Source: a bacterium (GTDB lineage Bacteria; UBA8248). Taken from it: a DNA stretch of 64,000 nt. How positions within the stretch are numbered: the stretch's first letter is position 1; every line of letters begins with the position of its first letter. This document shows, in pieces, positions 45,431 to 57,971 of the stretch. The notes under the pieces were generated by a model, which was not told where the DNA came from, did not search any database, and was given only the letters and a program-made list of their open reading frames with translations. Where the stretch lies: positions 96,001-160,000 of the forward strand of contig CBDBEV010000001.1 in NCBI GenBank assembly GCA_965204535.1, written 5' to 3'. A program made the translations under genes and the position numbers.

Positions 45431-47212
45431 GAGACTGTGAAAGTATTCCCACGATTCTGGTGGGTGACGCTGGCGAGCGATGCCCGGGTTGTCTGTACAT
45501 GCTATCTTTACCGGTGAGTGAGATAACCACATAAAGGGTCACCACCATGTCCGAGAGACGTTATCAGGAGGTGCAGTCCCGAAGCCAGATGATGCTGCTT
45601 CCGCCGTGTCTGGACGACTACGTGTCCGAGCACAATGCGGTGCGCGCGATCGATGCGTTCGTCGGCACGCTGGACCTGGAGGCGCTGGGGTTCGCGCATG
45701 CCGAAGCGAACTGCGGCGCCGGTCAGCCGGCTTTCGACCCGGCGCTGCTGCTGAAGCTGTATCTGTACGGCTACCAGCACCGGGTACGGAGTTCGCGCCG
45801 TCTCGAAGCGGAGACGCGGCGCAATCTGGAAGTGATCTGGCTGTGCCAGGGTGCGACGCCGAGCTACAAGACGATTGCGGATTTTCGCAAGAACAATGTG
45901 GCTGCGCTGCAGGAGGCCAACCGGGAGTTCGTGCTGCTGTGCCGCGAACTCTCGCTGCTGGGCGGCAGCCGGGTGGCGGTCGACGGGACTTTTTTGAAGG
46001 CCGATGCGAACCTGGACAGCTTCCAAACCAAGCGGTCCCTGGCAAGGGACCTGAGGCGTTTGGAGAAGAGGATTGCGGCGTATCACCGGCAGTTGGACGA
46101 GGCGGATGCGCGCGGGGAGGAGTGTGGGGACGGTTCGGAGGATCCGGACCTGCCGGTGAAGCTCAAGGCCTTGATCGAGAGGCAACAAAAGAAGAAGGCA
46201 CTGCAAGAGCATTTGCAGGAAAGCGGAGAGCGTCAGGTATCGGGGGTCGATGCAGATGCTCGACTTCTGAGGAACGGCGATATAATGGTGGGCGGATACA
46301 ACTGCCAGATCGCGGTGGACGACAAGCACAAGCTGATTGTCGCGGAGGATGTGGTGCAGGACGGCAATGACTCCGCTCAGTTGGAGCCGATGATGACGAA
46401 AGCCGGCGAAGCCATGGGCAGCGAACGCCTGGTCGGCCTGGCGGATTCGGGCTACTTCAACGGCGCACAGTTGAAGAGTTGCGAAGACAAGGGAATGGAG
46501 GTGTATGTTCCGATACCGAACCAGACGGCCCGCAAGGGCAAGGACGGACGATTCGGCAGCGATGAATTCCGTTACGATGCGCAGGATGACACGTATGTCT
46601 GTCCGGCCGGAGAGCGTCTGGTTCGAGGCGGCACGACCACCGTCAGGGGCAGGCTGTATTACTTTTATCGCGGGACGGCGGCGGTTTGCCGGGACTGTTC
46701 GTTGTCGGGCCGATGCCTGACAAAGTCGAGATCGACGCGCAGGATACAACGCTGGGAGCATGAGGACGTGGTGGACCGGCATCGCAAGAAGATGAACGCC
46801 CGTGTGCCATTGATGCGCGGGCGAAGCACACTCGTCGAACATCCATTCGGTACGATCAAGCGCTGGGCGGGGATGGATCATTTTGTGATGCGCGGACTCG
46901 GCAAATGCCGCGGCGAATTCAGCCTGATGACGCTGGGTTACAACTTCAAGCGGGTCATGCGTGTGCTGGGCGGAGCTGCATTTGTGGAGCATTGTCTGCA
47001 AAAACAGCGGTTGGGGACGAATGGCGTGTGAACTTGAAGCCGATTCTTCGAGGACTTGACCGCGACCCCGAGCTGACCGGCCGCCGAGACGTTTCTCTCC
47101 CGGCTCTGCGGTGTTGTTGCTCCCGAAGTTGAAGACAGTGTCCGGCCATCGGGCTGCAAGCGTAAGCGAGCCCTGTTCCGGAGACTGTGAAATCCAATAC
47201 TCTCACAGTCTC
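45431..47212 (+). mobile_element. IS1182-family insertion sequence, 1782 bp
   Basis: Terminal IRs GAGACTGTGAAAGTATT and GAGACTGTGAGAGTATT (16/17), with 5-bp TSD ACGAC at 45426-45430 and 47213-47217. Confidence 0.93.
45547..47031 (+). CDS. IS1182 family DDE transposase
   Basis: LLKLYLYGY..RSSRRLE, TIADFRK, VDGT, GYNCQ, ADSGY and VEHPFGTIK motifs. Confidence 0.93.
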   Translation: MSERRYQEVQSRSQMMLLPPCLDDYVSEHNAVRAIDAFVGTLDLEALGFAHAEANCGAGQPAFDPALLLKLYLYGYQHRVRSSRRLEAETRRNLEVIWLCQGATPSYKTIADFRKNNVAALQEANREFVLLCRELSLLGGSRVAVDGTFLKADANLDSFQTKRSLARDLRRLEKRIAAYHRQLDEADARGEECGDGSEDPDLPVKLKALIERQQKKKALQEHLQESGERQVSGVDADARLLRNGDIMVGGYNCQIAVDDKHKLIVAEDVVQDGNDSAQLEPMMTKAGEAMGSERLVGLADSGYFNGAQLKSCEDKGMEVYVPIPNQTARKGKDGRFGSDEFRYDAQDDTYVCPAGERLVRGGTTTVRGRLYYFYRGTAAVCRDCSLSGRCLTKSRSTRRIQRWEHEDVVDRHRKKMNARVPLMRGRSTLVEHPFGTIKRWAGMDHFVMRGLGKCRGEFSLMTLGYNFKRVMRVLGGAAFVEHCLQKQRLGTNGV

Positions 47213-48047
47213 ACGACGATGCGCGGCCCCGGTTTCAGGGGGGTCGGCCGGGGAACTTTCGGCATTTTCCTTCCCTGAAGTTTCGGCCATTTGGCGAAAA
47301 AATTTTTTCGCCTCTTTATCAAAATGGATTTTACCCGGGGAACGTCGAAAGCTCCGGCAAACACCAAGACGGCGGATGAAGGCGGATAGAATTGCTTGTG
47401 ATATTTCTTCAACTCTGCCGCGCCAATGTTCTTGAGCGTCTGCCGCGTACCCAGAATGGCGCGGCCGTAAGGATGCCGGGGGCCGTAAGCTTCACGATAA
47501 AGGTGATATTGAAGCACCTGGTCAGGCTGTTCATAGGTGCGGTTCCATTCGGAAAGAATGACCTGTCTTTCCTGGCGAACTTCGCTATCCTCAAACCGAG
47601 GCCACCAAAGCGCATCGAGTAGCGCTTCCAGGCATTCTTCAAATTTATCCGGCATCGATATCAAATCGTAATGAGTGGATTCATTCGTCGTATAGGCGTT
47701 GATGTCCCCTCCGGAAGACTCGGCCAAAGAGGCGAGTTCCCCTACTTCCAGATTTTCCGAACCCTTGAATATCATGTGCTCCAGAAAATGGGAGATACCC
47801 TCAAGCTGGTCCGTTTCTGTGAGACTGCCGACGCGAAACCATGCCTGCACGCTCACGGCGGGAGCGGTGGAGTCCGGCAGAAAAAGACAGGCAGGGCCAC
47901 CCTTCATCCGGTAGACGAGAGGTTTTTTGTCTTCAGAAAACGCTTCACTCGCGTCGTTTGGAAATTTCTTGAACATTATCGAAACAGGCTCACTCCTGGC
48001 CAAGACGACCAATCCGACGTGCAGTCAATCTGAAAGCGCCGAATCCC

Positions 48048-48538: not shown

Positions 48539-48811
48539 ATGAGCCGAGCGCTGGTGATGCACCCGAAAGACAACGTGGCCACGGTGCTCGAGGACATCTC
48601 CCCCGAGCAGAGTGTAGAAATCGAAGGCGATGATAAGACACTTACGCTTTCCGCAACGCAAGCGATTCCTTTCGGACACAAAATCGCGCTGCGCAAGATC
48701 CGCTCAAACGCAAAAGTGCTCAAATACGGCGAGGTCATCGGCACTGCCACACAAGAGATATCCGCCGGCAGTCACGTTCACGTCCATAACATCAAGAGCA
48801 CCAGGGGTTAG
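48539..48811 (+). CDS. UxaA/SuyA-like small subunit (SAF domain)
   Basis: DNVAT, IPFGHKIAL, KYGEVIG and HVHVHN motifs. Confidence 0.88.
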   Translation: MSRALVMHPKDNVATVLEDISPEQSVEIEGDDKTLTLSATQAIPFGHKIALRKIRSNAKVLKYGEVIGTATQEISAGSHVHVHNIKSTRG

Positions 48812-48813
48812 GT

Positions 48814-49992
48814 TTGGCCCGTAAAAGAGGCACTCCTACCTTCCGGGGCTACAGGAGACCTGAAGGCCCTCCGGGCGGCCGGAATCATCTTGCCATCGTC
48901 AGCGGAATGGACAATTCCAACCCCATCGTCCGCAGAATCGGCGGGCTTGTGCGAGACGCCACGCCCGTCAACACCTCGTTCGGACGCGCCCTGATGGGTG
49001 AGGACGAGGCGCAGCATTGGCGGGTCATGGGGCACACCGCCGCCCACCCGAACGTAGGGGCCGCCATTATCGTAAGCCTCGAGCCAAAAAGCGCCAACGC
49101 CATCGCGGAAGTAGCCGCGAGAACATCTCCGTGGATGCCCATAGAAGCCGTGAACATTCAGGAGATCGGGGGCACGCTCAGCACCACTTCGCACGTCGTG
49201 GAACTCGCCACGAAACTCTCCGCCCATCTTGCATCCGCCAAGCGCGCCCGCTGTGAACTGGACGAACTCACCATCGGGGCCGAATGCGGCGGTTCGGATA
49301 CGACCAGCGGCGTCATCTCGAACCCTGTGACGGGCATGGTCGCCGACAGGGTCGTGGAAGCGGGAGGTTCGGTCATTTTTTCCGAAACCCTGGAAATCGT
49401 AGGTGCCGAGCATCTTCTCGCCCGCCGGGCCGCGGACAGAAAAACAGCGCGGAGAATCATCGATTCCGCAAGGCGCGCCGTCGATTATGCCGAAAGCATC
49501 GGTGTCGATTTCATCGGTTCGAATCCAGCACCGGACAACATTCGGGGTGGTCTATCGTCCATTGAGGAAAAAAGCCTGGGAGCCGTCAAGAAAGCGGGGA
49601 GCCATCCCATCGTCGAGGTCATCGGCGTGGGTGAACGCCCGAAGAAAAAAGGCACCATCTTCGCTGACGCTCCCTGCGCGGGCGTGGAGAACATATCCTC
49701 CCTGGCGGCCAGCGGGGCGCAGGCGATTATCTTCTCGACCGGAATCGGCAATCCCATCGGGCATCCTGTCTCTCCTACCATCAAGGTGACGGGCAATCCC
49801 CGAACCGCGCGGACGATGTCCGAGAACATCGACGTGGATATCAGCGGCGTCATGGAGGGGACGATGCGCATAGATGAGGCGAGGGATATGCTCGAAAAAG
49901 AACTCATCGACGTGATGAGTGGAAAACTCACGGCATCGGAACTTCTGGGAGAAACCGAACTTACGGTCAGCCGGGCTGCGCTGAGCCTCTAA
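48814..49992 (+). CDS. UxaA/GarD/SuyB family dehydratase or lyase large subunit
   Basis: FRGYRR..RNH, HPNVG, ECGGSD, GGLSSIEEKSLG and FSTG.GNP motifs. Confidence 0.88.
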   Translation: MARKRGTPTFRGYRRPEGPPGGRNHLAIVSGMDNSNPIVRRIGGLVRDATPVNTSFGRALMGEDEAQHWRVMGHTAAHPNVGAAIIVSLEPKSANAIAEVAARTSPWMPIEAVNIQEIGGTLSTTSHVVELATKLSAHLASAKRARCELDELTIGAECGGSDTTSGVISNPVTGMVADRVVEAGGSVIFSETLEIVGAEHLLARRAADRKTARRIIDSARRAVDYAESIGVDFIGSNPAPDNIRGGLSSIEEKSLGAVKKAGSHPIVEVIGVGERPKKKGTIFADAPCAGVENISSLAASGAQAIIFSTGIGNPIGHPVSPTIKVTGNPRTARTMSENIDVDISGVMEGTMRIDEARDMLEKELIDVMSGKLTASELLGETELTVSRAALSL

Positions 49993-50033: not shown

Positions 50034-50546
50034 CTAGAAGCCCATTCCGACGATTAGCCGATTCCAGGTGTTGATGAGCGCGATGGCGCCCAGAAGCTCC
50101 ACTATCTGCGCTTCCGAATAGTGCGTCTTCAGCGCTTCGAAAGTTTCATCCGAGACGCTCACCCCCTGCGTGCTTTCCTCACAAAGGCGAAGCGCCGCCT
50201 TTTCTTTCTCATCGAAGACATCGCTTGCAGAACCCTCTTGCGCGGCTTTCGTCTTCTCATCCCCCACCTTGTGCATCTTCGCCATGTTGGAGTGCATGTT
50301 GGCGCAAAAATGGCATCCGTTTAGAACCGACGCGCGAATGTTCAAGATTTCCTTGAATCCGACGTCAATCTCCCCAGGGCCATCCGCCACCGTGGTCAGG
50401 CTCAGCAAAGAGCGCAAAAAATCCGGTTTGTGGGCCAGTGCCTTCACCGGCGGAATCACGACGCCGAACTGTTTTTGTAAGTTCTCCATGATGCGTTTCG
50501 CGGATGCTTCCGCCTGCTCGGGTTCTAACAAGGAAATTCGTGGCAT
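50034..50546 (-). CDS. Carboxymuconolactone decarboxylase/AhpD-like peroxidase-related protein
   Basis: KEIL..RASVLNGCHFC..MH motif and NTWNR. ATG 50546 follows GGAG. Confidence 0.88.
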   Translation of the reverse strand: MPRISLLEPEQAEASAKRIMENLQKQFGVVIPPVKALAHKPDFLRSLLSLTTVADGPGEIDVGFKEILNIRASVLNGCHFCANMHSNMAKMHKVGDEKTKAAQEGSASDVFDEKEKAALRLCEESTQGVSVSDETFEALKTHYSEAQIVELLGAIALINTWNRLIVGMGF

Positions 50547-50780
50547 TCCATGCTCCTTTGATAGATTCGTCTGGATGTATGCCGACACGTTATAGAAAGT
50601 GTCATTTCACCGATATTTACGCCACACCGAGGCCGCGGGTCAATGAATGCGTCGAAATCACCTCTCTGCCTGCAAAAAGGCGTATGAACGCAAGCACAAA
50701 ACATCTACTTTTGCTAAACTATGCTCCATAATTTCTGTCTCCCGCTGCATACGCTCTAAACAAAGGGATGAAAACTGCCC

Positions 50781-51608
50781 ATGAGCAAACAAGTTTCCTT
50801 AAAAGATGCCGCATCACTCATCGAAAATGGAGACGCGATCAGTCCCGGCGGAACCTTATTGCACAGAACACCCGCCGCCCTCATCCGCGAAATTGCGCGC
50901 GCGGGTCTTCGGGACCTCACGCTCATCAAGCCGTCTCCCGGTTACGACGCCGATCTCCTTTGCGCCGCAGGCGCCGTGAAGAAAATCATCAGCGGCATTG
51001 TTACATTCGAGGCGGAATTCGGATTGGCGCCTCACTATCGAAAGGCGATAGAGAAAGGAATGGCCGGCCTCACCGAGCATGCCTGAGCCAGCGTGCTTGC
51101 TGGGCTGCGGGCCGCAGCCTACGGCGTTCCCTTCCAGCCCATTCGCGGATTCGATGGGAGTGATATCCCCGAACAAAGCGGCATCTTCACGATTGAAGAC
51201 CCCTACACGAATGAGGAACTCTATGCGATTCCCGCCCTCAAGCCGGACTGGGCGTTGATCCACGTCCAAAAATCAGACCCTCAGGGAAACGCGCAAATCC
51301 TGGGCAATCAGCAATTCGACGTTGAAATGACGCGCGCGGCGCAAAAAGGGGTCATTCTCACGACCGAGAAAATCGTAGACTCCGAAGAAATCGCAGCGGA
51401 ACCGGAGAGAACCACCATCCCGAGTTTTCTCGTCAAAGCAGTCGTGGAAACGCCGGGCGGCGCGTCTCCTTGTAGCTGCCATCCATTTTACGGGGTCGAC
51501 AAAACAGAAATGAGGCGCTACATGACCTTGACCCAAAGCCAGGACGGGCTTCGGGAATATCTGGCGAGTACCGACGAAACACACACACAAGACGCGGTGA
51601 CGAAATAA
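50781..51608 (+). CDS. Class I CoA-transferase alpha subunit (GctA/IpdA-like), probable selenoprotein (Sec102 at TGA 51084-51086), 275 aa
   Basis: ORFs 50781..51086 and 51093..51608 share a frame and are the two halves of one CoA_trans domain: ...LTEHA-U-ASVLAGLRAAAYGVPF...PALKPDWALIHVQKSD..GN. Confidence 0.82.
51101..51121 (+). promoter_or_regulatory. Putative bacterial SECIS element
   Basis: UGGGCUGCG[GGC]CGCAGCCUA forms a 9-bp stem with a G-initiated loop 22-23 nt after the UGA. Confidence 0.65.
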
Positions 51609-51610
51609 CG

Positions 51611-52363
51611 ATGGGCAACCGCCTGGCCTCGTTGCCCGAGTATGTGATCCGCGCTGGAAACCAGATGGCCGTAACGCTCTCGCGCCTCATCGAAGACGGC
51701 GAGAATGTGTTTCACGGGGTCAACTCCCCGCTTCCCATGGTCGCGATCTTCTTGGCCAAGAAACGACATGCCCCCAACTGCTCGCTCATAGAAGTCGCGG
51801 GCTCGGTGGACCCCAAACCACGCTTCATGCCGAACAGCACGGCCGACCCTGAACTCTGCCATGGTGCGGCTTCTATGTTCTACAACCCGGATATGTATGA
51901 TCTCTTTGCACGCGGCGGGGTGGACTTCGCTTTTCTGGGTGCTGCCCAACTCGACAAGCAGGGCCGAGCCAACTTGAGCTATATAGGCGACCCGTTCCAC
52001 CCGAAAGTAAGGCTCCCAGGCGGCGGGGGAGGCGCCGTTATCATGCCGCAGGTGAAACGAACCGTCATATGGCGAACAGTTCACGACAAACGATTTCTCG
52101 TACCTAGGGTCGATTTCTCGACGCAGTCGGGCAATCTGAGCCACGTCGTGACACCCATCGCCTTGTTCGAGAAAAAACCCGCCGGGCTCGAGATCGCCAG
52201 CGTTCACCCTGGCCACTCGATGGATGAAGTGGTCGAGAAAACAGGCTTCGACCTGGAGCGCCCGAGCATTGTGGCGCAAACTCCTGCGCCAAGCGCCGAA
52301 GAACTGAGCGCCCTGGAGGAGCTCGATCCGGATGGTGTGCGATTTTCGGAATTCCGTGTATAA
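51611..52363 (+). CDS. Class I CoA-transferase beta subunit (GctB-like)
   Basis: HAPN, FLGAAQLDKQGRANLS, RLPGGGGG and VDF...SVHPG. Starts 2 nt after the alpha subunit stop. Confidence 0.88.
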   Translation: MGNRLASLPEYVIRAGNQMAVTLSRLIEDGENVFHGVNSPLPMVAIFLAKKRHAPNCSLIEVAGSVDPKPRFMPNSTADPELCHGAASMFYNPDMYDLFARGGVDFAFLGAAQLDKQGRANLSYIGDPFHPKVRLPGGGGGAVIMPQVKRTVIWRTVHDKRFLVPRVDFSTQSGNLSHVVTPIALFEKKPAGLEIASVHPGHSMDEVVEKTGFDLERPSIVAQTPAPSAEELSALEELDPDGVRFSEFRV

Positions 52364-52448: not shown

Positions 52449-53090
52449 ATGAGCAACGAATTGTTAAATCGCTTGGGAAGCTATTCGACCTGTCAGGCGG
52501 CGGACGCTTTTGACAAACTGAAAATCAGGGGCCACATGCCCGACATCATCCTGTTATCGCCCGACCCGGAATACCGGATGGTGGGCGAAGCCCACACCGT
52601 TCGAATGGTACCCGCCGGTGGCGGCCCCCTGCCCAAGCGCGAGGTGCACCACATCGACGCGGCGCCCGAGGGGAGCATCGTTGTCATCAGCATCCCGCCC
52701 GGTGTCACGACAGCCAACTGGGGCGGGATGATGAGTACGCGGGCGAAGGTGATGAACCTCGGAGGAGTCGTTCTTGACGGCAGGGCCAGAGATATCGAGG
52801 AACACCGCCAGATGGGGTTTCCCGTGTTTGCCAGAGGAGTGTCTGTTCACGGCAGCGGCGGATATACGGTCCCCATAAGCGTTGGAGAGCCGATCAATTG
52901 CGGGGGCGTCGCGGTGAGGCAGGGAGACGTCATTCTGGGAGACGTCAACGGCGTGGTCGTCATCCCCAGTGAAAGACTCGAGGAAGTCATCGACAAGATG
53001 GATGAACTGGCGGAAATCGAAGAAAAAATTACCGCGGAACTGGAAAAAGGCGTGAGCATCGGCGAAACATTCGCCAAGTATCGAGGCTAG
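52449..53090 (+). CDS. RraA-like / HMG-CHA aldolase family protein
   Basis: STCQAADA, ANWGGMM, DGRARD and GDVILGDVNGVVVIP motifs. Confidence 0.88.
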   Translation: MSNELLNRLGSYSTCQAADAFDKLKIRGHMPDIILLSPDPEYRMVGEAHTVRMVPAGGGPLPKREVHHIDAAPEGSIVVISIPPGVTTANWGGMMSTRAKVMNLGGVVLDGRARDIEEHRQMGFPVFARGVSVHGSGGYTVPISVGEPINCGGVAVRQGDVILGDVNGVVVIPSERLEEVIDKMDELAEIEEKITAELEKGVSIGETFAKYRG

Positions 53091-53862: not shown

Positions 53863-55935
53863 TCAATCCCTCTCGAGCGCTTTTTCTATCTTCTCCAAGT
53901 CCGTGAGCGGCTCCTTGCATGTGAAATTTTCGCAAAGATATACCGTGGCTTGTCCATCCACCATGGATTTCCCATCAAGCAAGGGCACTGCGGCGTCTGT
54001 TTCTTCGTCAGACGATTCGGTTCTGAGAGCCAAAACCTTGTTGGGAATGAAGCGCGAATCAACGACTTTAAGGGCCGCGCGCGTATCTTCTGCGTTTCTC
54101 TCTCCGACAATAGCCACTTCCACCGGGGAGTCGAGATAAAAGTCCAGCGCCACCAGCATCATGTGGAAAGCGGCCGGCACGCGGCTCAGGTAATCTCCGA
54201 ACGAGCGCAAAACGCCCTCGCCATGCTCTGCGAATTCCGCCTCGCCCGAGAGTTTCGCCAGTTTCAATAAACCCAGCGCCGCCATGGAATTTCCGCTCGG
54301 AACGGCGCCGTCTTGCGTCATCTTCTTCCGCACGATGAGCTGTTCATGGTCGTGGGCCGTAAAGAAGAATGCGCCCGCCTCGTCATCCCAATATCGAGAT
54401 ATCATCTCTCTCGCCAAATCCGAGGCCGCTCGAATCCACTTTGGCTCAAAGCTCGCCTCGTATAAATCCACCAACCCCAAGATCAGAAAAGCATAATCAT
54501 CCAGATACGCGTTGAACTTGCTTACGCCTTCCCGGTGGCTTCTCAGCAAGCCGCGCTCATCGCGCATGTTGTTCAAAATAAAATCCGCCGCCTTGCCCGC
54601 TTCTTCTACATAGGGACGGTGCTCCAGAATCCTGCCCGCCAAAGCCATCGAGCCGATCATGAGTCCGTTCCAACTCGTGAGAATTTTGTCATCCAGTCCC
54701 GGCTTCACGCGCCGTTCGCGCTCGGCGAAGAGTTTTGCGCGCCCTCTTTGCAAGACATCAAAGAGCTTTTCTTCCGTGATTCCCAGTTCTTCGGCGAAAA
54801 CGCGGGGTGGTTTCTGAATGAACAAGGCGGAGGTGTTGCCCTCGAAGTTCCCCTCTTCCGTCACGCTGTAGAACCGGCAGAATATGTCGGCTTCTTCTTT
54901 GCCGAGAACCTCTTCTATCTCCTCAGGACGCCAAACGAAGAACTTGCCCTCCTCCCCCTCGCTGTCAGCATCCTGCGCGGAATAAAATCCTCCGCCCGGG
55001 CTGGTCATCTCCCTCAAAACGTAATCGAGCGTATCCGCCACCACGGAGCGGTAAAACGCGCTTCCCGTCGCCTGATATGCTTCGAGATAAACCCTGGCAA
55101 GCAGAGCGTTGTCGTAAAGCATTTTCTCGAAGTGCGGGATAAGCCAATAATTATCTACGCTGTAGCGGTGAAAACCTCCACCGAGTTGATCATACATCCC
55201 GCCCAGCGCCATTCTTTGAAGCGTTACCTCGACCATCTTCAGTAGTTCCTGATCCGGGGACTGCTTCCATTTTCTTAAAAGCAGCATCAGCGCCATGGAG
55301 GGTGGAAATTTGGGAGCGCTCCCAAAGCCGCCCCATGTCGAGTCGAATCGCTCTTTCAGTTCCTTAGCGGCCTGGTCGATCCACTCTGCTTTCAAATCAC
55401 CCGTTGCGGGCGTAACGACTCCCATTTGCTGTAGATTCGCCGTGATGCTCTCCGCGTTATCGTGCAAATCGTCCTGTCTTGTCTGGTAGACTTCGGCCAG
55501 CCTCAAGAGCACGTTCTTGAAACCGGGCCTGCCCCATTTGTCATGTGGCGGAAAATATGTACCACCGAAGAAAGGCCTCAAATCCGGGAGCAAAAAGACA
55601 CTCATGGGCCAGCCCCCCTGGCCCGTCATCATCTGCACCGCTTCCATGTAGATACCGTCGATATCGGGGCGTTCTTCTCGATCCACCTTGATGGAGACGA
55701 AATGCTCGTTCAGGATTTCGGCGATTCCCTCATCCTCGAAACTCTCGTGCTCCATCACATGACACCAGTGGCAGGCAGAATAGCCGACGGACAAGAAAAT
55801 GGGCTTGTTCTCTTCTCTTGATTTGCGGAGCGCATCCTCGCCCCATGGGTACCACTGCACCGGATTGTATTGATGCTGTAAGAGATAGGGGCTCGTCTCC
55901 TGTGCGAGGCGATTCTGCTGACGGGGGTGAATCAT
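53863..55935 (-). CDS. Thioredoxin-domain protein of the YyaL/SSP411 family
   Basis: [39 protein letters not shown] and [11 protein letters not shown] motifs. Confidence 0.93.
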
Positions 55936-56008: not shown

Positions 56009-56512
56009 TCAACAAAACAATTCGGGCTGGGGGAAGATTTGCGCGTGTGTCTCCACACGCCCGTCCCCACGAATATGCGATATATTTTCATCGCAACTCT
56101 CCGCCCATGCCGCGGATACCAGATGCAGGCGGTGACAGTTTCTCGGGTTCTCCTCCGCACAAAGAACCGCCGTCGGTTCCTTTCCCACTCGCGTTCTTAG
56201 TCGTTCCAGAGCGTGGATAAAACTCTCATCGCGCTTCACTTTCTTCCAGTCGATGCGTCCTTGGGGGTCAAAAAATTCTGGACGTTGTCTGAAATCGCGC
56301 TTTCCGCCCAAAGCCTCCCCTTCCCAGACGTATATAATGTCTCGCGACAAGAGGCTTTTGCTTATACTTTCTCTGTTGAATTGAGGGTTTCTCCTGCTGT
56401 AGGGGATGCTGCGCACATCCACCACGCATGCGATGCCGTGGCGGCTCAGCAGACCCAGGAATTTCTCCGCGCTGTGGTTGCTGTGGCCTATTGTCCAGAG
56501 CGGGTGCTTCAA
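56009..56512 (-). CDS. DUF488 family protein
   Basis: TIGHS, VDVR..PYSR, LGG and LCAE...CHR motifs. TTG start overlaps the upstream TGA and follows GGAGG. Confidence 0.85.
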   Translation of the reverse strand: MKHPLWTIGHSNHSAEKFLGLLSRHGIACVVDVRSIPYSRRNPQFNRESISKSLLSRDIIYVWEGEALGGKRDFRQRPEFFDPQGRIDWKKVKRDESFIHALERLRTRVGKEPTAVLCAEENPRNCHRLHLVSAAWAESCDENISHIRGDGRVETHAQIFPQPELFC

Positions 56513-57849
56513 GCGAGACCTCCCATGAGCGTGGCTGCAATCTCGCAACCACGATGAAATATCTCCACGTCGATATTCTCATCGGGAGCATGAGCGTTTG
56601 AATCCGCATTGGCGAGCGGGAACCAGACGGAAGGGAGCCCCAAGTCTCTCGTGAACATGCTGTCGGGAACGCTGCCGCCGAAGTTCGGGTAGATGACGGG
56701 CTCGACCCCGAAACCACTGACAGCCTTGATGACTTTCTGCACATAGGGGTCGTCCGCCGGCGTTTTGCTGGCGTCGAACGTGGCCATCTTGCGCACTTCG
56801 ATGTCATCGAAACCCTCTGCATTCAAAAACGAACACACATCATCAAACAGCTTGTCCGGGTCCTGCGCCACAACAAGGCGGAAATCCAGCTTGGCGCTCG
56901 CGGAACCCGGCAAAACTGTTTTCATTCCATCGTTGGAATATCCCCCCTGGAATCCACAAATGTTCAGGTTCGGCTGGGTGAGCGTCTTTGTATAAAAGGA
57001 AGAAAGATTAGGAATCCGGGAGGCGCCTTCTCCGATGACAGCCCGAAGTTCCGCCTCCGGGTCGGGAATTCCTCGCAGAGCAGCTTGATCCGCACCGCCG
57101 ACCGGGAGCACGGACTCATAAAATCCCGGCACGCGCACCCTTCCCTCACCGTCGCGCAGACGTTGCACGGCCTCCATGAGCCGCCAGAACGGATTCGGGG
57201 CCGCTCCGCCATAAGACCCGGAATGGAGGTCTTTCCCGACGCCGTGTGAGATAAGTTCGATATAGAGTAGCCCTCTGCATCCCATAGAGAGCGTCGGCCT
57301 GCCCGAGGGGTGTATGGAGCCATCGGATGAGCAGGCGATATCTGCTTTTAACAACTCCTTGTTCGCCTGAATGAATTTTCTCAAATTTGGCGAACCCATC
57401 TCCTCCTCTCCCTCTATCAAAAACTTGAGATTGATGGGCATTTTCGTGTTTGTCTGTTGGTAGGCCTCGACCGCCTTGATTTGCGCGAAATGCTGGCCCT
57501 TGTTGTCTCCCGAGCCTCTTGCATAGAGGCGGCCATCTCGCACCTGTGGCTCGAACGGCTCTGAGCTCCAACCCTCAGAAATATCGGCCGGCTGAACGTC
57601 GTAGTGGCCATAGCTCAGCATCGTCGGAGCATCCGGAGGTCCCTTCACTTCGCCGTATACGAGCGAAATGCCCTCGGTCGGAAGAATCTGCGCCTGAATG
57701 CCTGCGCTACTCATCAATCCCGCCAGATGCGCCGCCGCCTCCTCGACACCGACCCCCAATGTGCTGATGGAGGGTATTTTGAGATATTCGATGAGTTCTT
57801 CCAGACTCTGCTCCCTTCTCGCCCGCAAAAAATCAATCACCGCCGACAT
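56509..57849 (-). CDS. M20 family dipeptidase
   Basis: YGHYDVQP, ARGSGDNKGQ, EGEEEMGS, DLHSG and HAPDE motifs. Confidence 0.92.
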   Translation of the reverse strand: MSAVIDFLRARREQSLEELIEYLKIPSISTLGVGVEEAAAHLAGLMSSAGIQAQILPTEGISLVYGEVKGPPDAPTMLSYGHYDVQPADISEGWSSEPFEPQVRDGRLYARGSGDNKGQHFAQIKAVEAYQQTNTKMPINLKFLIEGEEEMGSPNLRKFIQANKELLKADIACSSDGSIHPSGRPTLSMGCRGLLYIELISHGVGKDLHSGSYGGAAPNPFWRLMEAVQRLRDGEGRVRVPGFYESVLPVGGADQAALRGIPDPEAELRAVIGEGASRIPNLSSFYTKTLTQPNLNICGFQGGYSNDGMKTVLPGSASAKLDFRLVVAQDPDKLFDDVCSFLNAEGFDDIEVRKMATFDASKTPADDPYVQKVIKAVSGFGVEPVIYPNFGGSVPDSMFTRDLGLPSVWFPLANADSNAHAPDENIDVEIFHRGCEIAATLMGGLA

Positions 57850-57971
57850 TCAATTCTCCTTCACATGAGCTATATTCGCCAAGATGTTGCCGAAATCGTT
57901 TCCCCGGATTATTCTCAGAGATGGTATGAACCTGCCAATTCTTTTGCCGCCGAGCAAAAATTGGATTTCGC

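Follow-up and report, generated by a model that had tools for sequence, protein, structure and literature searches.

The gene at positions 50781-51608 (+) of the 64,000-nucleotide stretch analysed here (hereafter the window; positions 96,001 to 160,000 of the forward strand of contig CBDBEV010000001.1, assembly GCA_965204535.1, from a bacterium of the GTDB lineage UBA8248) encodes the alpha subunit of a heterodimer having the coenzyme A (CoA)-transferase fold, and carries an in-frame TGA codon at 51084-51086 (+). Comparison of the gene with its relatives makes it very likely that this TGA is read as selenocysteine (Sec). With good confidence, it can be proposed that Sec insertion is directed by a hairpin that looks like a SECIS (Sec insertion sequence), and that the resulting 275-residue alpha chain has in Sec102 the predicted catalytic residue of an acyl-CoA enzyme of the IpdAB/AibAB type.

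The alpha-subunit gene and its in-frame TGA

From the ATG at 50781 to the TAA at 51606-51608, a single frame of 275 codons is found, the sole internal stop of which is the TGA of codon 102, in the context ...LTEHA-U-ASVLAGLRAAAYGVPF. With genetic code table 11, this frame is divided into two open reading frames (ORFs), 50781-51086 (101 residues) and 51093-51608 (171 residues, GTG start). An initial annotation of the window had already described two same-frame ORFs, split only by this TGA and joining into a 275-residue alpha chain, and our analysis agrees with it on this point as well as on the peptide context. The read-through product matches the Pfam family CoA_trans (PF01144) with 78.7 bits (cut-off 23), and does so end to end, residues 6-223 corresponding to profile positions 3-216 of 217. 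The beta-subunit gene, at 51611-52363 (+), begins 2 nt past the alpha stop and is intact, as the same annotation had stated (PF01144, 68.4 bits for the same cut-off of 23). Both the N-terminal and the C-terminal halves of the alpha gene show ratios of nonsynonymous to synonymous substitution rates (dN/dS) of 0.04-0.17 in seven comparisons with genus and family relatives; three more distant pairs were left unused, the ungapped comparisons with L050 and L057 being unreliable in the C-terminal half, and that with L051 being saturated.

Alternation of TGA and cysteine codons among relatives

When 51 genomes of the same phylum were searched in all six frames, 35 orthologous copies of the alpha gene were retrieved (63-100% identity; 34 genomes, five genera). 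Each has exactly one TGA, which is the same codon in 35 of the 35 copies and lies in the context TEHA-U-[AP][ST][VI]LAGLRAAAYG. In three copies, additional TAA stops are seen close to where the match ends, the query being a few residues longer than these orthologues. The same search gave 41 further rows, corresponding to paralogues of at most 53% identity, all of which are stop-free. At the position of the TGA, the paralogues of the same genomes have TGC or TGT at 23 of 25 loci according to a first pattern, and the other two have Cys according to a looser one. When 25 full-length database homologues are aligned, Cys is observed in the 20 closest (42-55% identity), within the motif E-[HN]-[AST]-C; the more distant IpdA-like proteins of this alignment have Glu in the Sec column, and Ser in one case.

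Public sequences were scanned with an alignment of eight short C-terminal fragments, suspected to be pieces annotated after the TGA. Among 80 metagenome loci, 57 have TGA, 22 have TGC or TGT and one is truncated, and among 72 loci of species-representative genomes, from several phyla, 50 have TGA and 22 have Cys; because the query was built from TGA-type fragments, these TGA:Cys ratios are biased. At least eight sequence types surround the TGA in these scans, for instance TENS-U-PVIYAGMRAAS, REHS-U-ATILAGMQAAS and HEHS-U-PGILAGLQAGAS. According to their titles, the records having the TGA form belong to Nitrospinota/Nitrospinaceae, Tectomicrobia, Methylomirabilia/Rokuibacteriota, Sulfotelmatobacter, Chloroflexota (Thermomicrobiaceae, Limnocylindria), Deferrimicrobiaceae/Deltaproteobacteria and ANGP1. 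The Cys form is found in records of Achromobacter (11), Methylobacterium, Halomonas, Cupriavidus, Pseudoxanthomonas, Bacillus and others. Tabulating residue 102 across homologues, as had been advised, therefore gives an alternation of TGA and Cys. On a quick maximum-likelihood tree of 130 rows (80 Sec, 45 Cys and a Glu/Ser outgroup of 5), the Sec/Cys label changes about five times, at least three of these changes being forced by well-supported branches.

Both forms may be neighbours. In one sister genus (L050 in G023, and also G054, G055 and G056), a Cys-type alpha paralogue comes immediately after the Sec-type alpha-beta pair, so that Sec and Cys versions stand in tandem, together with a CoA_binding_2 gene. 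The metagenome locus L138 (2174-5046) has, back to back, a Sec-type alpha-beta pair and another CoA_trans pair; the alpha subunit of the latter has Cys and, in the quick tree, groups close to the outgroup of the Glu type (IpdA-like).

A SECIS-like hairpin downstream of the TGA

The hairpin with a G-initiated loop that the initial annotation had placed 22-23 nt after the UGA is real. It spans 51101-51121 (+), where 51101-51109 pairs with 51113-51121 through nine pairs (U-A, G-U and seven Watson-Crick pairs); the stem begins 15 nt downstream of the TGA and the GGC loop (51110-51112) starts 23 nt after it. Folded alone (51099-51123), the hairpin has a free energy of -14.6 kcal/mol (z = -2.17), and 4 of 200 shuffled sequences fold as well. 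The accessible sections of a 2026 inventory of prokaryotic selenoproteins give for the bacterial SECIS (bSECIS) consensus an apical loop of 3-9 nt, a stem of 4-16 bp, a G in the first two loop positions (mostly G then G/U), a UGA-to-loop spacing of 16-37 nt and a minimum free energy (MFE) of -7.5 kcal/mol or lower (PMC13188914). The hairpin of the window lies within all these bounds, with its 3-nt GGC loop, 8-9 bp, 23-nt spacing and -14.6 kcal/mol, as judged from the same sections (PMC13188914).

The hairpin is also conserved in homologues. Codons 108-114 (G108-Y114), from which it is formed, have the lowest synonymous-codon entropy among the well-aligned parts of the gene in the 35 copies, comparably low windows being found only in the gappy C-terminal tail of the alpha gene. 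The sole changes in these codons are a C-to-U change in the loop and the replacement of a U-A pair by U-G. Covariation was studied in a gap-free alignment of 65 distinct TGA-form sequences, each of 54 nt and beginning at the TGA. The helix formed by columns 19-26 with columns 30-37 is paired in 97.5% of cases, and compensatory changes are observed at pairs 22-34 (C-G/A-U, 17 sequences), 24-32 (G-C/C-G, 5 sequences) and 26-30 (G-C/A-U, 6 sequences). As a control, the 3' arm was displaced by 1-3 columns, which leaves 37-49% of cases paired.

The hairpin is specific to the TGA forms, which have on average 7.8 of 8 positions paired and -13.4 kcal/mol. Cys forms in the same register have a mean of 4.96 of 8 positions paired and an MFE of -6.05 kcal/mol (49 distinct 54-mers, including two, L106 and L140, that are spurious pattern matches from another frame). 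The difference holds even for an identical peptide, the Cys forms that have AGLRAAA[YF]G encoding it with varied codons. Thus, the examination of homologues for a SECIS that had been suggested brings out conservation, compensatory changes and association with TGA. Finally, a possible weak 5' helper helix, uncertain, may be drawn at 51087-51100 (+), between 51087-51091 and 51096-51100 (70.8% of cells paired); its pair 6-15 switches between C-G and G-C in some lineages, and the window itself has a C-U mismatch there.

Selenocysteine machinery of the genome

The genome has the complete equipment for Sec insertion, which had been put forward as something to look up: selA (572.8 bits), selB (389 bits), selD (331.5 bits) and tRNA-Sec (75.9 bits) are all present, above curated cut-offs. 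The selD gene, outside the window (G000:C2:846402-847364, + strand), has one in-frame TGA of its own and thus corresponds to a Sec-type selenophosphate synthetase.

The initial annotation also mentioned a second Sec candidate in the window. No such candidate was identified, the 12 other single-TGA read-through frames of the window having matched no selenoprotein family. One of the genes considered, encoding a member of the M20 dipeptidase family (56512-57957, - strand), has a TGA 35 codons into its longest read-through frame; because the family match begins after it, this TGA is probably upstream of the true start and most likely does not encode Sec.

Fold and predicted active site

Among solved structures, the alpha chain is best matched by IpdA (6CON, 6CO6/6CO9 and 6COJ; profile E-values of 2.5e-72 to 6e-71), GctA (1POI) and AibA (5MZW). 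An AlphaFold (AF2) model, with a predicted local distance difference test score (pLDDT) of 95.2 and a predicted template modelling score (pTM) of 0.92, superposes on these relatives with template modelling (TM) scores of 0.85-0.89. Residue 102 of the model is the first of helix 102-114, which comes after strand 96-99. In the alignment, Sec102 faces the second E of the 'REMDEGM' motif of IpdA. The 6COJ chain differs from that of 6CO6 by an Ala in the Sec102 column and by nothing else, and the title of the entry is 'IpdAB E105A COCHEA-CoA complex'. Sec102 is thus at the position of IpdA Glu105, the residue mutated for the substrate complex. The structural study of IpdAB is said to have given Glu105 the role of catalytic base.

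The beta subunit is closest to AibB (E = 4e-34). Its Val62 is opposite an AibB column that varies among five PDB sequences (C, A, S, N, V) and that corresponds to Cys56. Across the Sec and Cys clades, position 62 is always V or I, the preceding residue being E (window's clade), N, T or S. As judged from these alignments, the canonical beta catalytic Glu of class I CoA-transferases (GctB Glu54) is missing here, with a caveat concerning Glu61, to which we return below. Because of this, and because Sec is found where the hydrolase IpdA has Glu105, the enzyme is probably not a true transferase. We consider that it is probably an acyl-CoA-processing, IpdAB/AibAB-like enzyme with a predicted Sec/Cys catalytic residue. 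The CoA-transferase alpha chain of the initial annotation therefore stands as regards the fold, with a PF01144 match from end to end, and probably falls as regards the transferase. It should be relabelled as an IpdAB/AibAB-like enzyme of the CoA-transferase fold in which Sec or Cys occupies the position of IpdA Glu105.

Proposed mechanism

The following scheme can be proposed. SelB would bind the hairpin and deliver Sec-tRNA(Sec) at the UGA. Alpha-beta pairing is textbook for the CoA-transferase fold, and the two subunits would form the usual heterodimer, able to bind an acyl-CoA. With a Val of the beta subunit at the catalytic Glu position, CoA transfer would not take place. The selenolate of Sec102 would be located at the N-terminus of helix 102-114, the helix dipole favouring the anion, and may act as a nucleophile or as a base on the acyl part of the CoA thioester, in a C-C cleavage, a hydration or an isomerisation. 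The ring opening carried out by IpdAB and the action of AibAB on an unsaturated dicarboxyl-CoA would offer analogies for this chemistry.

Within the subfamily, Sec and Cys have been swapped repeatedly and never replaced by Glu, which argues for a role requiring a soft nucleophile. A bolder view may tentatively be put forward, though we hold it somewhat less probable than its contrary. The proteins would form an uncatalogued, multi-phylum selenoprotein family in which a selenolate or thiolate replaces the carboxylate of the fold, and would perform covalent, non-redox acyl-CoA catalysis via a selenoester or a Michael adduct. To our knowledge, covalent non-redox catalysis on acyl-CoA by a selenolate has no counterpart among the characterised selenoenzymes.

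Gene neighbourhood

Downstream of the beta gene, a gene of the RraA-like aldolase/decarboxylase family (52449-53090, + strand; PF03737, 114 bits) is a conserved neighbour in the window's clade, and the order alpha-beta-RraA-RlpA of the window recurs at the loci L051, L103 and L128. On the other side, a CMD/AhpD-like gene with a CHFC motif (50034-50588, - strand; PF02627) is a conserved, divergently transcribed neighbour. It is found at the same position in L051, L103 and L128, relatives extending to other genera, and is absent from the other Sec clades examined. Against the NCBIfam model NF053654, 'YciW-related (seleno)protein', it scores 83.6 bits for a cut-off of 310, and it has the Cys form (CHFC) with no TGA. 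The neighbours found in the other Sec clades are different: aminotransferase/MFS/MarR genes, a second alpha-beta pair, and others. Genes for a family III CoA-transferase and for an AMP-forming acyl-CoA synthetase stand on either side of the pair at two proteobacterial loci of the Cys form, a context that fits an enzyme receiving its substrate already as a thioester.

Farther upstream, at 48539-49992 (+), the window has a small ORF with a SAF domain and, directly after it, a large subunit of the UxaA/GD_AH type; together they make up a dehydratase or lyase with two subunits, from the altronate/galactarate dehydratase family. This SAF/UxaA-like pair holds the upstream position in the window and also at L103, a locus of the same genus; in the more distant relatives examined, L051 and L128, the CMD gene has a gene for an HflX-type GTPase upstream of it. 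At 45547-47031 (+) and 47203-48012 (-), a DDE transposase gene (DUF772, DDE_Tnp_1_6) adjoins an M16 peptidase ORF. Of the peptidase, this ORF covers the N-terminal domain and no more than the beginning of the C-terminal one, and the insertion may have cut the gene.

Weighing of the proposal and alternative explanations

Several observations weigh against a hairpin-directed, catalytic Sec. The 62-nt stretch starting at the UGA, a GC-rich coding sequence, is no more stable than its shuffled versions (z = -0.04), and a scan of 50700-51700 with Rfam, at E-values up to 10, gave no relevant match. Thus, thermodynamics alone is weak, and the support for a SECIS comes from the comparison of relatives. 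In this comparison, a few Cys forms attain 7 of the 8 pairs, the hairpin is partly favoured by the GC-rich codons of G-L-R-A-A-A, and two of the compensatory changes also alter amino acids (Leu/Met with Ala/Ser), so that co-variation at the RNA level and at the protein level are not fully separable. To these points can be added the bias of the public-scan ratios. As regards the machinery, selB is so widespread in the phylum (48 of 51 genomes) that its co-occurrence with the TGA form is uninformative, and two TGA-carrying genomes (67% and 91% complete) have no selB match. As regards the active site, the role of Glu105 is drawn from a PDB title and from what the structural study is said to propose, the equivalence of Val62 with GctB Glu54 is transitive through AibB, and the beta subunit of the window's clade has Glu61 one residue before Val62, a Glu that is not conserved in the other Sec clades. 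Finally, GctA has Gln and AibA has Gly in the Sec column, which means that a catalytic role of this position does not extend to the whole fold.

This last point bears on the alternative that survives best, namely that Sec is inserted without acting as nucleophile or base in catalysis. The residue would then serve as a redox-sensitive switch, as a ligand of a metal or cofactor, or as a site kept reduced by the AhpD-like CxxC neighbour. Besides the residues of GctA and AibA, this idea draws on the conservation of the divergent CHFC gene in the window's clade and on the redox nature of most of the selenoproteins described in the accessible part of the inventory (PMC13188914). However, neither a UxxC/CxxU motif nor a conserved second Cys is seen in the alpha chain, and the CMD gene is missing next to the other Sec clades examined. 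Moreover, the position is that of the IpdA residue mutated to trap the substrate, and the beta subunit offers no alternative canonical catalytic residue. We therefore regard a non-catalytic Sec as unlikely.

A catalytic Sec102 also has to be compared with a conserved split gene, in which the UGA would terminate translation and two polypeptides, of 101 and about 170 residues, would make up the alpha subunit and assemble with beta. Public annotation does enter the C-terminal piece as a protein in its own right (P0007 and P0040, 166-167 residues, and five more pieces of 154-170 residues), and the window has a GTG 6 nt past the TGA. However, codon 105, where this GTG stands, is GTG in just two orthologous copies out of 35, the others having GTT, GTA, ATC or ATT, and no other start is conserved after the TGA. 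Furthermore, the break would fall exactly on the Cys codon of the paralogues and, in the AF2 model, between strand 96-99 and the helix 102-114 that it caps, and the hairpin follows the SECIS rules and is specific to the TGA forms. All this makes a split gene very unlikely.

Another possibility is that the UGA is read as Trp, Cys or Gly, without Sec, by a near-cognate tRNA or through an altered code. Low-level read-through of UGA occurs in many bacteria, and nothing more specific speaks for this explanation. It is extremely improbable here, given that TGA is the ordinary stop of a nearby gene (53863-55935, - strand), that the genome has a complete Sec system including a selD with an in-frame TGA, and that Cys/TGA alternation together with a SECIS-like hairpin is the signature of Sec. 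As for a pseudogene or an error of sequencing or assembly, a fresh nonsense mutation or a wrong base call would indeed look like a lone in-frame stop, but the presence of the same TGA in 35 of 35 orthologous copies (34 assemblies) and at 107 further public loci excludes the sequencing error that had been listed as a possible refutation, and with purifying selection on both halves of the gene it leaves this explanation a negligible chance.

Novelty and significance

Searches of full-text literature found no link between Sec and the CoA-transferase-fold family. The initial annotation had left open whether the family was already catalogued; the whole of Table 1 of the 2026 inventory, with its 119 prokaryotic selenoprotein families and subfamilies, contains no CoA-transferase-fold family (PMC13188914). 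The accessible part of the text of this inventory, in which PF01144, IpdA and TIGR02429 were looked for, has no CoA-transferase-fold listing either (PMC13188914). The term 'CoA' does not occur in the accessible main texts of deep-Sep (PMC12013277) and BSepDB (PMC13326102), family table S2 of BSepDB being outside this search. NCBIfam release 20 has no dedicated model, and the alpha chain matched only TIGR02429 and NF007394 in it, far under their cut-offs. The protein would be a new form within two known groups, the bacterial selenoproteins and the non-transferase members of the class I CoA-transferase fold.

According to the accessible sections of the inventory, most catalogued selenoproteins are redox proteins (PMC13188914). 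If the present proposal is true, Sec at the active-site position of a fold that processes CoA thioesters would widen the chemistry for which selenium has been selected. The selenoprotein family, its paralogues and IpdA would then constitute a natural Sec/Cys/Glu series at one catalytic position, suited to testing why selenium is used. There is also a practical consequence. Because gene callers split the alpha gene, the databases keeping its C-terminal pieces as separate proteins of 154-170 residues, the family is mis-annotated in the genomes of several phyla; the records concerned are titled Nitrospinota, Tectomicrobia, Methylomirabilia, Chloroflexota, Acidobacteriota and Deferrimicrobiaceae.

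Comparison with known systems

The closest known system is IpdAB of Mycobacterium tuberculosis and Rhodococcus jostii (PDB 6CON, 6CO6, 6CO9, 6COJ), the hydrolase that cleaves the ring of COCHEA-CoA in steroid catabolism. IpdA is the best match of the alpha chain both by profile (E = 2.5e-72) and by fold (TM 0.89, root-mean-square deviation of 1.9-2.0 A, 32% identity), and the residue of interest is in the alpha chain, in the same alignment column. The accessible parts of two reports describe IpdAB as a ring-opening hydrolase that has the CoA-transferase fold, no transferase activity and no beta catalytic Glu (PMC5380842, PMC6678751). The two systems differ by the residue itself, Glu105 in IpdA as against Sec in the present protein and Cys in its paralogues. 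In addition, little similarity is seen between the beta subunits (E = 1.4e-5), the substrates certainly differ, and no steroid ring-degradation neighbourhood (echA20, ipdC, fadA6) is found among the annotated genes within about 8 kb.

AibA/AibB, the 3-methylglutaconyl-CoA decarboxylase of Myxococcus xanthus (5MZW-5N03), provides the closest solved beta subunit, its alpha subunit matching with E = 4.9e-32. It, too, belongs to the fold without being a transferase, and another residue stands in place of the catalytic Glu. As given in the accessible part of its description, this Glu is replaced by Cys56 of the beta subunit in the decarboxylase, whereas glutaconate CoA-transferases keep it (PMC7756340). 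The special residue of AibAB is thus in beta, whereas here beta has Val62 and the Cys or Sec is in alpha, where AibA has Gly. With GctAB of Acidaminococcus fermentans (1POI) and other class I CoA-transferases, the pair shares the Pfam family in both subunits, the alpha-beta gene order and the fold (TM 0.89). However, the beta Glu that carries the acyl and CoA intermediates in these enzymes is not conserved here, and GctA has Gln at the Sec position.

Comparison can finally be made with bacterial selenoprotein genes having an intragenic SECIS, such as FdhA, SelD and GrdA/B. As in these genes, an in-frame UGA is adjacent to a downstream hairpin of the bSECIS type, Cys-containing homologues exist, and expression would depend on selA, selB, selC and selD. 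Unlike them, the alpha gene has no redox motif around Sec, and its PF01144 fold stands outside the 119 catalogued families.

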